Below are positions 1 to 54,674 of a stretch of 64,000 bases of DNA, piece by piece (within the stretch, counting starts at the first letter, position 1; every line of letters begins with the position of its first letter). Source of the stretch: Deltaproteobacteria bacterium (GTDB taxonomy: Bacteria > Myxococcota_A > Polyangia > Polyangiales > Houyiibacteriaceae). The position numbers were made by a program, and so were the translations under genes. The DNA lies in NCBI GenBank assembly GCA_034670305.1, contig JAXMNT010000011.1, positions 64,001 to 128,000 of the forward strand, given 5' to 3'. Under the pieces are notes generated by a model, which was not told the DNA's origin, did no database searches, and saw only the letters and a program-made list of their open reading frames with translations.

Positions 1-685
1 GGCCTGGTCGCTCGTCGGGGTGGATCAGCCCACGTTTGCGCCACCCGACGCGCAACAGCCACGTGTGTGCGCGTGGCATCGGCGGGCCGCAGTCGCGTGG
101 GGGCTCGGGGGCGGACGACCATCCATCGAAGTGCGGCGCCGTGGAACAGGGGTCGACCCAGCCGGGTCGAAACGTGCGGCGGGAACCCGCGTGCTTGCGC
201 TTGTTGTTGAGCACGTAACGAAGCGCGTGGCGGACCTGCGTGGGCGTGGAAAGGACCTCGGCGTGGTAGCGGTCCGGGAACAGCTTGCCCGACCGTCCGA
301 GGTACCTGTTCACTCGCTTCGCGAGCCGGATCAGCAACCCCTGCATGCCACGCGAAAGCGCCTCCGTGCTCTTCGCTTCTACGATGAGGTGGACGTGGTT
401 CGTCTGGATCGAGAAGTGAACGATGCGCATGCCGTTGCGCTCGGCCGCCTGCTCGAAGATCGAGAACAGCAACCGGGTGAGACGACGCCCGCGAAGACTT
501 GGGACGTCCGAAGCCACCTTGATCGTGACGTGGACGGGGTTGCGGTTGGCAACCTTGACCCGCGGCCGATGCGACACGCCCGCGCGTTCTCCCTTGGGCT
601 TGCGACCGGCGCCCGCACGGCGACCTCCCCACGTGCCGGGAAGCGAAAGGTCGAGCTGTTTCGGTTTGCGAGGGCGGCGCGCCAT
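1..685 (-). CDS. rayT: REP-associated tyrosine transposase (RAYT, Y1/HUH family), 3' end runs off window
   Basis: Manual translation from ATG at 685: MARRPRKPKQLDLSLPGTWGGRRAGAGRKP...PVHVT...IVHFSIQTNHVHLIVEA...LFPDRYHA...ALRYVLNN...TWLLRVGWRKRGLI. HUH motif at 383-400, putative catalytic Tyr in RYVLNN, no stop before base 1. Not in the ORF track. Confidence 0.88.
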   Translation of the reverse strand, partial: MARRPRKPKQLDLSLPGTWGGRRAGAGRKPKGERAGVSHRPRVKVANRNPVHVTIKVASDVPSLRGRRLTRLLFSIFEQAAERNGMRIVHFSIQTNHVHLIVEAKSTEALSRGMQGLLIRLAKRVNRYLGRSGKLFPDRYHAEVLSTPTQVRHALRYVLNNKRKHAGSRRTFRPGWVDPCSTAPHFDGWSSAPEPPRDCGPPMPRAHTWLLRVGWRKRGLIHPDERPG

Positions 686-874: not shown

Positions 875-924
875 GTGCTTTCTGAGGGGGGTTCCCCCTC
901 CGGCCCTCGGCCACCTCCCCACCT
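875..924 (-). repeat. REP-like double-hairpin element, copy A
   Basis: Minus strand reads AGGTGGGGAGGTGGCCGAGGGCCGGAGGGGGAACCCCCCTCAGAAAGCAC, with hairpins GGCC-GAG-GGCC and GAGGGGG-AAC-CCCCCTC. Related copies at 40930 and 53809. Confidence 0.75.
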
Positions 925-1330
925 GGTTCAAAGCGGTGCAGCAGCATGCTGCATTGGCCAAGGAGCCCCGTCTGCGCGCCGCCAAGCAGCCCGCTCCTCG
1001 AGCCCACATCGCCCGCCGGAACCCGGCCGCCCTATCCAGCAAACAAGCCCCCGCCTCCGTGGACCCGGCGCTTGCAGATTGCGATCCGCGGTCGAGTGGG
1101 ACAGGCGGGGCGCTCGAGGATGCTGGGCACGCCTGGGTGGATGGGGTTTCGGGTCCGCGAACCGAAGGGCATTGCCAAGGGAAGCGGCCAAGGGGTTCTG
1201 TGGCGAGCTGCTCGGTTGGACCTTCAGGGGCCGGCGTACCGGGGCCGAGGAGTCTTGCGCCACTGCTAGACTGCCTCGTGCCTGTCTCACCCCACCATAC
1301 GCCTCAGGGGGTCTGGGTGCGGTGTCCTCG

Positions 1331-40870: not shown

Positions 40871-40929
40871 TTGGTCTCGGCGCTGCTGAGCGCCGAAGAC
40901 CGCCAAGGTAGAGCCTTGGCGCGAAGCGA

Positions 40930-40997
40930 AGTTGGGGAGGAGGCCCGTGGGGCTTTGTCCCGCCGGCCGCAAAGGGATGCGCCATCCCCGACACAAC
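40930..40997 (+). repeat. REP-like double-hairpin element, copy C
   Basis: AGTTGGGGAGGAGGCC[19 nt]GGCCG...GGGATG-CGC-CATCCC-CGACACAAC, similar to copies A and B. Confidence 0.6.
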
Positions 40998-41049
40998 GGA
41001 GTCCTGCGATCGGCTGCCGCACCGGGCTGGGATCGGGTAGACCTCAGTC

Positions 41050-51857: not shown

Positions 51858-54674
51858 ATGGCGACCGGCTCCAAGACGCCCGCGGATGCGGCCACGCCCA
51901 AGGGCCAGTCGTCCGCGCCGGCGAAGCCCTCGAAGAAAAAGGGTCGGAAGAAGAGCGGCAAGGACAAGGGGCACACCCCAGTCATGCTGCAGTTCCTCCG
52001 CGCGAAGGAACAGTATCCGAACGCGCTCCTCTTCTTCCGAATGGGCGACTTCTACGAGATGTTCTACGACGACGCGGTGCGCGCGTCGGAGCTGCTCCAG
52101 ATCGCGCTCACCTCCCGCGGCACCGGTCCCGAGGGAGAGGACATTCCGATGGCCGGCGTGCCCCACCATGCGGCCGCCGGCTACCTCATCAAGTTGCTTG
52201 GGCTCGGCGTGACGGTGGCCATCTGCGAGCAGATGGCGGACCCGAAGACTGTGAAGGGCATCGTCCCGCGCGAAGTGGTCCGCGTGATCACCCCGGGACT
52301 CTGCCTGGAAGAAGAAGCCCTCGACGACCGGACCGATCACCACCTGGTCGCGTTGGCGCGCGAGGGGAAACAGGTCGGTTTGGCAGCGCTCGAGATGAGC
52401 GCTGGGCGGCTTCGGGCGGCGAGCTTCGAAGACCCGAGCGCGCTTCTGGCGGAACTCGTTCGTCTGGAACCGCGCGAGCTGCTCTTGCCAGCGGAAGGCA
52501 TCAAGGCGCTCGGGTTCGACGACGGGTTCGCCGCGGGGGTGCGCGGGCTGCTGCGCGATGTGCCCACCCAATCGTGGACCGCGCCCGATGCCGAAGAGTC
52601 CGCGCTGGTCGCGGCGGTCGGCGCGGAAGAAGCGGCCGCCGGACGCGAGAAGTTCTCGCCCGCCGCGCTCTTGGCGATCGAAGCGGCGCTCTCCTATGCG
52701 CGTTCAACCCAGCCCAAGACCCCGCTCGATGTCCGGCAGATCGATCCCTACGATCCGCACGACCAGCTGGTGCTCGACGAGTCGGCGGTCCGGAACCTCG
52801 AGCTGGTGCGGACGTTGGCTGGAGAGCGCAAAGGCTCGCTGCTCTCGTTGGTCGATTCCACCCGCACCGCGCTCGGCGCGCGTCTTCTCCGGCGCCGGAT
52901 TCTGGCGCCGCTGATCGACCTCGCCGGCATTCGGAGGCGCCACGACGCGGTGGAGGCGTTCGTGCGAGACGCGACCTTGCGGGAGTCGCTGCGGGACGCG
53001 CTCAAGGGCCTTGGGGATCTCGAGCGACTGACCACCCGCGCCTCCCACGGTCTGGCCACCCCGAGGGATCTCGGCCTCATTCGCCACGCACTTCGTGGTG
53101 CCGCGGGCGTCGCGGCGCTGCTCGCGTCCGGCGCGGACCGCACGACCGACGACGCGCTTCAGAGGCTGGTGCCGAGCGACGTGTGCGCCGACGTGCGCGA
53201 CCTGCTGGAGACCGCGCTTCTGGAAGAGGGCTTGCCGGTGGTCGTGAGCGGCGGCGGCATCATCCGCGAGAAGGTGGATCCCGACCTGGACGACCTGCGC
53301 ACGCTCTCGGCCGAAGCCAAGGACGTCATCCTCGAACTCGAGGCACGCGAGCGCAAACGCACCGGCATCGCCTCGTTGAAGGTCAAGTACACGAAGGTGT
53401 TCGGCTACTACATCGAGGTCACGCGCGCGAACCTCGCGTCGGTGCCGGACGACTACGTTCGCAAGCAGACGATCGCGAACGGCGAACGCTACGTCACCGA
53501 AGAACTCTCGGACCTGCAGGAGAAGATCCTCGGCGCGGACGAGCGGGCCAAAGCGCTCGAGCAGCAGATGTTCGAGGACCTCCGCGTCCGGGTCGCGAAA
53601 GAAGCGTACCGGTTGCGGCGGCTCGCTTCGCAGATCGCCGCGCTCGACGTACACGCGTCGTTCGCGGACCAAGCGCACCGGTACGATTACTGCCGTCCGA
53701 CGGTCGACGACTCCCGGCGGCTCGAGTTGAAGGACGCGCGGCATCCGATCGTGGAACGTCTCGCCGCCGACGGTTCGTTCGTGCCGAACGACGTGGTGCT
53801 CGATGCCGAGGTCGGGAGCAGGCCGAAGGCCGGAGGGGATGCCCCATCCCCTCAGACAACACAGGGCAACCGGCTGATGATCCTCACGGGCCCCAACATG
53901 TCGGGCAAGTCGACCGCGATGCGGCAGGCGGCGCTCGCGGTGATCCTCGCCCAAGCCGGCGGATTCGTGCCCGCGTCCGCCGCGCACATCGGCTGTGTGG
54001 ATCGTGTCTACACCCGCGTCGGCGCGAGCGACGCGCTCGGGGAAGGGCGCAGCACGTTCATGGTGGAGATGAGCGAAGCGGCCACGATCCTGCGCCACGC
54101 CACCGCACGTTCGCTGGTGGTGCTCGACGAGATCGGGCGCGGCACCAGCACCTACGACGGACTGGCCATCGCCTGGGCGATCGCCGAGCACCTCCACGAC
54201 CACGTGCGCTGCCGAGCGATGTTCGCGACCCACTACCACGAACTGTGCGAGCTCGCGGTGACCCACGAAGGCGCGTTCAACATGAACGTGGCCGCCACGG
54301 AGTACGAAGACGACGTGGTCTTCCTCCACAAACTCGTGCCGGGTGGGAGCAGCCGCAGCTACGGCGTCGCGGTCGCTCGGCTCGCCGGGGTTCCGCCGAT
54401 CGTCATCGCGCGCGCCAAAGCGATCCTCAAAGACCTCGAGTCCGGCACCGCGCTGCCGTCCGGCGAACCCTCGCGCCTGCGCCCCGTCGACACGCAGGGG
54501 CGTGCGCAGCTGGATCTGTTCGCGTCGCCCGCCGACGTCGAGCCCGCCGCGCCTGCGCCCACCCCCTCGAAAGTGGAGGCGACCCTCGCGGAACTCGACG
54601 TCGAGCGCATGACCCCGGTGCAAGCGTTGGTCGCGCTCTCACGTCTACGGGATCTCCTGGCCCAGAAAGAGTAA
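51858..54674 (+). CDS. mutS: DNA mismatch repair protein MutS
   Basis: [58 protein letters not shown]. Confidence 0.98.
53809..53862 (+). repeat. REP-like double-hairpin element, copy B, in frame inside mutS
   Basis: AGGTCGGGAGCAGGCCGAAGGCCGGAGGGGATGCCCCATCCCCTCAGACAACAC (54 nt). Confidence 0.78.

Follow-up and report, generated by a model that had tools for sequence, protein, structure and literature searches.

A double-hairpin repeat unit read in frame within the mutS gene of a myxobacterium, and its probable origin by insertion

The 64,000-nucleotide stretch of DNA analysed here (the window) lies on contig C11 of a 105-contig draft genome (7.93 Mb, 68% GC) of a Polyangia-like deltaproteobacterium (Myxococcota), and it contains a mutS gene for a mismatch-repair ATPase of the MutS1 type. 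Shortly before its Walker A motif, this gene carries a segment of 54 nucleotides (nt), or 18 codons, that is missing from the mutS genes of relatives and that belongs to a palindromic repeat family with about 52 copies in the genome. It is very likely, in our estimation, that a unit of this family inserted in mutS and has been tolerated there. A previous reading made from the letters of the window alone (the sequence-only reading) had proposed that a mobile repeat is adding new peptide to a mismatch-repair ATPase. This proposal is supported by the family membership of the insert, by the filled and empty states in which the unit is encountered at other loci, by its absence in relatives, and by the intact reading frame, all of which are properties of the sequence. 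The features of the gene and of its insert are as follows.

51858..54674, + strand: mutS (938 amino acids (aa), MutS1 type), an intact open reading frame (ORF), identified by ORF and start call, NCBIfam models and Foldseek
53778..53789, + strand: FVPN codons in the strand before the loop, invariant in the 42-sequence MutS alignment and within a modelled strand (E104-109)
53811..53864, + strand: in-frame repeat unit, 54 nt = 18 codons, missing in the mutS DNA and protein of relatives and recognized by the family profile and by covariance model R1 (70.1 bits)
53821..53831, + strand: hairpin 1 (GGCC / GAA loop / GGCC), from folds and family alignment pair 25-49
53833..53853, + strand: hairpin 2, a perfect 9-bp stem (GAGGGGATG / CATCCCCTC) with a CCC loop, from folds
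53889..53915, + strand: Walker A codons (GPNMSGKST), 8 codons past the insert, from sequence and alignment

The mutS gene looks intact despite the insert, as judged from its predicted product. This protein matches the NCBIfam MutS equivalog model NF003810 over its full length with 953.5 bits (cut-off 480) and matches TIGR01070 with 886 bits, and the mismatch-binding motif, the Walker A motif and the Walker B motif (DEIGRGTS) are all present. A structural model of the C-terminal part is best matched in Foldseek by E. coli MutS structures. No second MutS1-type gene was found in the genome besides the one in the window, and mutL was found at 415.9 bits. The closest MutS proteins in databases are labelled as coming from Myxococcota, Polyangiaceae or Sandaracinaceae metagenome-assembled genomes.

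The edges of the insert at 53811 and 53864 were set by comparison with the mutS DNA of relatives (e.g. GCC GAG^GGC GAG CGC CTG ATG) and are uncertain by 1 nt, with the block running GTCGGG...ACACAG. The sequence-only reading had placed the same object at 53809-53862, which is 2 nt out of codon phase and is corrected here. These edges coincide with those of the repeat family itself, in that the start (GT(C)GGG) and the end (ACAACACAG) of the insert are the edges of a 74-nt unit that is repeated in tandem on contig C2. All three forward frames of the insert are open and its length is a multiple of three, and therefore the insert would be read through in frame, as a Gly/Pro/Ser/Thr-rich segment of 18 residues that ends 8 residues before GPNMSGKST.

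The codons of this segment are atypical for mutS and do not appear to be adapted to it, which we count as a probable sign of foreign origin. A third-position G or C (GC3) is present in 12 of the 18 codons of the insert versus 798 of the 920 remaining codons of the gene (binomial P = 0.024). The Thr codon ACA is used twice by the insert and by none of the 47 Thr codons in the rest of mutS, and the insert likewise uses CCT (1/45 elsewhere in the gene) and CCA (2/45 elsewhere in the gene).

The claim that MutS normally has only a short loop at this point holds for the homologues that we compared, in which the spacing from FVPN to TGPNM is mostly 22-23 aa versus 41 aa here. Our set of relatives comprises 29 genomes of the same family or order, with no same-genus genome among them and with a best MutS identity of 71%. 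The predicted gap of about 18 aa is indeed seen in 21 of these 29, where the spacing is 23 aa. The remaining 8 have spacings of 25-31 aa, with 2-8 extra residues in the loop that are encoded by DNA unrelated to the repeat, and no relative examined has the block. Among the best 120 database homologues, 119 fit the motif, with a spacing of 23 aa in 96 and of 25-52 aa in 23. The matches listed from metagenomes include 80 distant MutS loci (identity of 55% or less), and of these, 73 have a spacing of 22-23 aa, one has 29 aa and six are off-pattern. An alignment with a human MSH3 structure leaves a gap of exactly 18 residues over the insert, and an E. coli MutS structure is listed as covering ~20 fewer residues over this stretch, a value that comes from listing figures and not from a residue alignment.

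The insertions that relatives and other homologues carry in this loop (L002, L009, L010, L028, P0020 and P0024) range from 2 to 29 residues and are unrelated in sequence, and some resemble local tandem duplications (e.g. L009). By these alignments, the loop before the Walker A strand is a recurrent site of insertions and deletions (indels) in this bacterial order.

A loop with this history might have grown by local slippage or duplication, as has occurred with unrelated, partly tandem-duplicated sequence in other lineages (L009, L002), and the likeness of the insert to the repeat would then be due to chance or to shared GC-rich composition in a genome with 68% GC. However, we regard this as extremely improbable given the strength of the match. 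The sequence-only reading had reported that the insert aligns end to end with the reverse complement of positions 875-924 of the window, with both stems preserved. This alignment has 42 identical positions in 54 columns (score 46), and both copies have the GGCC-loop-GGCC hairpin and the G-rich stem, which is 9 bp long in mutS. Not one of 2000 dinucleotide-preserving shuffles reaches this score (maximum 31). Random pieces of the window reach it in 3 of 3000 draws, from a sampling that included both copies and that gave a self-match as its top score (92). A profile built from 45 copies of the family, with both copies on C11 left out, recognizes the mutS copy with E = 9.9e-10 (39.6 bits) and the copy at 877-927 with E = 5.2e-7, and the same profile yields 0 matches at E <= 10 in a first-order Markov simulation of the whole genome. 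Growth in place is also hard to reconcile with the edges of the insert, which are those of the family unit, and with the hairpin architecture that is common to both.

The repeat family was defined by covariance model R1, built from 22 copies, which gives 52 matches in the genome at E <= 0.01, and by an iterated nhmmer search, which converges on 53 matches. The window contains two copies besides the one in mutS.

877..927, − strand: second copy of the family, 51 nt long, within the upstream terminal inverted repeat (TIR) of a unit carrying a Y1 transposase gene, from paralogue alignment (E = 5.2e-7; R1 63.1 bits)
~40926..40998, + strand: third copy, a degenerate long form, from R1 (E = 0.0019) and from the sequence as read

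Two forms of the unit can be recognized. The short form (51-54 nt) consists of a purine-rich 5′ part (AGGTGGGGAGGAGG), hairpin 1, hairpin 2 and a tail (CAGAAA or GGACAACAAAC); its hairpin 1 is GGCC, a 3-nt loop and GGCC, and its hairpin 2 is a G-rich stem of 7-10 bp. In the long form (72-74 nt), the loop of hairpin 1 contains a further, third hairpin, and a conserved 5′ module of ~70 nt usually adjoins the unit. A 74-nt long-form unit that starts with GTTGGGG and ends with ACAACAAAC is present three times head to tail on contig C2 (163714-163933), and the sequence past this array repeats the start of the ~70-nt 5′ module, which suggests that modular arrays are formed. The copy in mutS combines a hairpin 1 of the short form with a hairpin 2 and a tail that are like those of the long form, and its 5′ part bears private substitutions.

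The hairpins are preserved across the family. At least three versions of hairpin 2 are found that differ from each other yet are self-complementary (GAA-CCC-TTC, GATG-CGCC-CATC and ATG-CCC-CAT). In hairpin 1, pair 25-49 of the family alignment is GC in 18 copies, AU in 2, CG in 1 and GU in 1. Overall, 97% of stem cells are paired, versus 42-67% when the partner is slid. The 72-nt matches were considered as possible tRNA genes, and this was rejected: ARAGORN finds no tRNA in the window, and the 72-74-nt matches are the long subfamily with its extra hairpin. A scan of the window with Rfam gave no family at its gathering score.

The family seems to be confined to this lineage and is nearly always outside of genes. 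A codon-position GC test on 51 copies places 44 where no coding signature is seen on either side, 6 just upstream of a coding-like frame and only one, the mutS copy, within a gene. Among 60 related genomes, the family was absent from 59 and gave a single weak match in one. A search for its core pattern in a collection of species-representative genomes, which may omit the source genome, gave 4 isolated matches in unrelated taxa that we take as chance. Judged by these sequence comparisons, the unit is a lineage-restricted, previously undescribed double-hairpin repeat family of the kind of repetitive extragenic palindromes (REPs) and miniature transposable elements with inverted repeats (MITEs).

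The unit also appears to behave as mobile DNA, as evident by two further contexts in which it is polymorphic, with filled and empty states separated by sharp edges. The first of these is a transposase element whose copies on C11, C15 and C55 align over ~1.5 kb and end in inverted repeats of ~55 nt. The unit sits at an identical point (...CTTTGA^ACTGCC...) in two of the six arms, the upstream one of the C11 copy and the downstream one of the C15 copy, and the other four arms are empty. The second is another repeat family, GGCGGCGAGCACGT...TTAGGGC, with 44 empty copies (20-21-nt core) and 12 filled copies that are longer by 53 or 54 nt. These filled copies are spread over four subtypes, each of which has empty copies too. 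No consistent target duplication was found across mutS, the transposase-element inverted repeat (twice) and the four host-repeat subtypes, and the folding of natural empty target sites gave no consistent placing of the insertions in hairpin loops.

The genome has further clustered repeat families (e.g. C1:95400-96250, C37:51700-52200 and C2:73900-74200, GGCGGCGAGCACGT...TTAGGGCCGCC, ~70 copies), as well as the motif GCGAAGCGAGCCAG with 196 copies genome-wide. The small double-hairpin unit is often nested in such clustered repeats or lies beside them.

A candidate for the enzyme that moves the unit is located at the very start of the window.

1..685, − strand: RAYT-like (REP-associated tyrosine transposase) gene for a Y1 (HUH) transposase with flanking TIRs, interrupted by the window start (PF01797, NF047646; full ORF of 237 aa at L036:1267-1980)

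Its product passes the cut-off of PF01797 (Y1_Tnp; 35.4 bits, cut-off 23), and its best NCBIfam match is the model for REP-associated tyrosine transposases, NF047646, at 40.8 bits, which is below the cut-off of 80. There are 11 paralogous units of ~1.1-1.5 kb in which a Y1 gene of 233-249 aa lies between TIRs of ~55 nt, each made of two small palindromes, and positions 1-955 of the window are part of one such unit that extends upstream of the window (L036/L069). The hairpin architecture of the repeat together with the lack of a target duplication fits single-strand transposition by a Y1 enzyme. We therefore propose, tentatively and with some doubt, that a member of this Y1 (HUH) family acts in trans as the mobiliser of the unit.

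Several observations weigh against this account of the insert and of its movement. No close relative with an empty allele was found; the closest MutS among the relatives is 71% identical, and over residues 540-800 the best match to MutS in protein databases reaches 76% identity. For its GC-rich composition, the mutS copy has an ordinary folding energy (z = -1.4 as RNA and -1.8 as DNA), and changes on both sides are seen in only 1 of 15 stem pairs, such that support from covariation is modest. The left flanks of the insertions vary (TTTGA, GGCAG, ATGTG and CCGAG), and thus there is no conserved target of the IS200/IS605 type. With regard to the mobiliser, the long inverted repeats that flank the 11 Y1 genes are unrelated in sequence to the unit, which is present at only two of the Y1 loci, inserted in a single arm each time. 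Of the 60 relatives, 6 have a full-length homologue of the transposase, and these 6, which belong to other families of the order, all lack the repeat, in a comparison where the cognate repeats may differ between genomes.

Two other explanations for the presence of the segment in mutS were weighed. As the draft consists of 105 contigs, the repeat is present in many copies, and short repeat contigs accumulate at 53804-53838 in the sequencing runs that we examined, repeat reads might have been threaded wrongly into mutS when this genome was assembled from a metagenome. However, two runs yield Logan contigs (13 kb and 19 kb) that cross 53400-54300 with 0 differences. The two runs belong to one study and may themselves be the source of this DNA, which makes them not independent of the assembly, and they exclude an error of a single assembly only. 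The mutS copy also has private substitutions that are absent from the other copies, and it falls precisely in frame, in the single loop where insertions are tolerated. An assembly artefact is therefore very improbable in our view. The opposite direction of transfer, in which the family arose by capture and amplification of a piece of mutS, would account for the shared sequence and for nothing further. No relative has this loop, the codons of the segment are atypical for mutS, and the mutS copy holds no central place in the family, given its mixture of short-subfamily and long-subfamily features and its private changes; we give this direction almost no credence.

Two marine-metagenome runs of a different study (X5 and X6) contain short, high-depth contigs of the short-form repeat (53804-53838) with host-repeat flanks, along with pieces of mutS at ~95-100% identity. 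No contig in these runs crosses 53659-53996, and thus they are uninformative on the insert. The repeat contigs and the near-identical mutS pieces indicate, though, that this organism, or one closely related to it, is also found outside of the source study.

The consequences of the insertion for the protein were considered with an AlphaFold2 model of MutS residues 541-938, computed with 42 aligned sequences (mean predicted local distance difference test (pLDDT) score of 80.8). A model of the loop had been suggested by the sequence-only reading, and the insert (model residues 111-128) is predicted as a low-confidence coil, with block pLDDT values of 59 and 56. It is flanked in the model by strands 104-109 (FVPNDV) and 133-137 (LMILT), with block pLDDT values of 89 and 87. 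We favor the interpretation that one unit of the ~52-copy family inserted into the turn between the FVPN strand and the strand that leads into the Walker A loop, where it would be read through as an unstructured surface loop of 18 residues. The unit may have moved as a single-stranded hairpin, without target duplication, by means of a Y1 (HUH) transposase supplied in trans, a step that we hold with more doubt than the insertion itself. Because this loop tolerates insertions across the order, the insertion would not be removed by selection. Its survival is probably owed to a length divisible by three, to open forward frames and to a permissive loop. As a passenger, such an insert would be neutral or slightly harmful, and it is most likely that MutS remains functional, presuming that the protein is made and active as its sequence suggests.

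Alternatively, the insertion might not be neutral. A longer turn by the nucleotide-binding site could alter ATPase cycling and thereby weaken or modulate mismatch repair, giving a mild mutator or hyper-recombiner lineage. The proximity of the insert to GPNMSGKST, 8 residues away, is in line with this idea, as is its status as the sole intragenic copy of 51, which matches a pattern described in PMC3733652, where repair genes are often the sole REP-tagged coding sequences. The genome also has several abundant repeat families, and a five-unit hexanucleotide pattern has 6230 matches here versus 390 or fewer in any of 40 relatives (26 of which have none). However, the loop is a hot spot for indels, with other insertions in 23 of 119 homologues; the insert is modelled as a disordered coil between flanking strands that stay confident; all MutS motifs and mutL are intact; and the microsatellite excess is a single observation. 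We thus judge an altered MutS to be unlikely. Moreover, bacterial MutS acts poorly on loops of 6 nt, which weakens the link between the hexanucleotides and an altered enzyme. It is more improbable still that an altered MutS is causally tied to the unusual repeat load of this genome, with selfish hairpin DNA attenuating repair, and a coincidence in a single case would suffice.

The hexanucleotide repeats were also noted in the window itself, where dense arrays of (G/T)CCGA(A/C/T) and its complement occur at 8.8-9.1, 11.3-11.9, 14.7-15.0, 38.0-38.5, 43.4-43.8 and 63.0-63.2 kb. Genome-wide, the 6230 five-unit matches are ~16 times the number in the richest of the 40 relatives.

If the insertion arose as we propose, a core conserved enzyme has gained protein sequence from repeat DNA at a distance of 8 residues from its ATP-binding loop, and the gene was left unbroken. 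A mismatch-repair gene would thereby join the published clustering of intragenic REP-type insertions in replication and repair genes (PMC3733652). The repeat family is of interest in its own right, as an undescribed, lineage-restricted family in Myxococcota that nests in other repeats and in the ends of transposase elements. Should the loop change the activity of MutS, selfish repeats would be linked to the evolution of mutation rate, and should it attenuate MutS, nature would here offer an example of selfish hairpin DNA weakening the repair that limits repeat instability and recombination.

The protein itself conforms to the MutS1 ATPases in its equivalog match and its intact motifs, and the known systems most closely related to its insert are the intragenic REPs. 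In Di Nocera, De Gregorio and Rocco, 2013 (PMC3733652), GTAG- and CGTC-tagged REPs are described inside replication and repair genes, which are often the sole tagged coding sequences, and mutator effects of REP-tagged repair genes are put forward by these authors as speculation. The case described here is similar, in that a short and mostly intergenic hairpin repeat has a rare in-frame copy in a repair gene that is its sole tagged coding sequence, and in that ~20 residues are encoded that are thought to sit in a flexible loop. It also shares the REP trait of many dispersed, mostly intergenic copies (52 matches). The target here is mutS, a name that the main text of PMC3733652 does not contain. 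A REP in the sense of this article is a single palindrome of 20-40 bp, whereas the present unit has two hairpins in 51-54 nt or three in 72-74 nt. REPs likewise carry a GTAG or CGTC tag at the end of the stem, whereas our unit begins with GTGG, GTTG or GTCG, followed by ~9 purine-rich bases, and no tag abuts its stem.

The sequence-only reading had invoked Rickettsia palindromic elements (RPEs), and this parallel is apt for the outcome but not for membership. As in RPEs (PMC10969869 and PMC3733652), palindromic selfish DNA is read in frame in a seemingly functional gene and adds peptide to its product. RPEs, however, are ~100-150 bp long, are restricted to Rickettsia and are frequently intragenic, with nearly half of three families located in ORFs, whereas the present unit is 54 nt long, has 1 of 51 copies within a gene and resides in a myxobacterium of a free-living type. 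This distinction is drawn from host, length and published descriptions.

Resemblance to REPIN-RAYT systems and TIRtrons (TIRYT), as outlined in PMC3733652, is found in the 11 Y1 HUH genes, whose best match is the model of REP-associated transposases and which are flanked by long inverted repeats, and in the insertion of the unit without target duplication, as this enzyme class predicts. In a REPtron or REPIN-RAYT system, however, the RAYT gene lies between inversely oriented repeat units, whereas our unit does not flank the Y1 genes, and the transposase misses the curated RAYT cut-off (40.8 versus 80 bits). Inverted doublets were not seen, and the three copies on contig C37 share one orientation. 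Searches that did not take in subscription journals found no literature on intragenic REPIN-RAYT systems, no published repeat insertion in mutS and, among the papers listed, nothing relevant on RAYTs and REPs in Myxococcota.

Bacterial MITEs (PMC10969869) are comparable as small non-coding elements with presence/absence polymorphism and possible in-frame fusions. MITEs have terminal inverted repeats and a target-site duplication, whereas neither is clear here at four kinds of filled versus empty site. Palindrome-associated elements derived from IS200/IS605 insert 3′ of a conserved tetra- or pentanucleotide, whereas the left flanks of our unit vary. Therefore, while in-frame insertions of REPs and RPEs, often in repair genes, are already known (PMC3733652), the case in mutS and the repeat family to which it belongs appear to be new.

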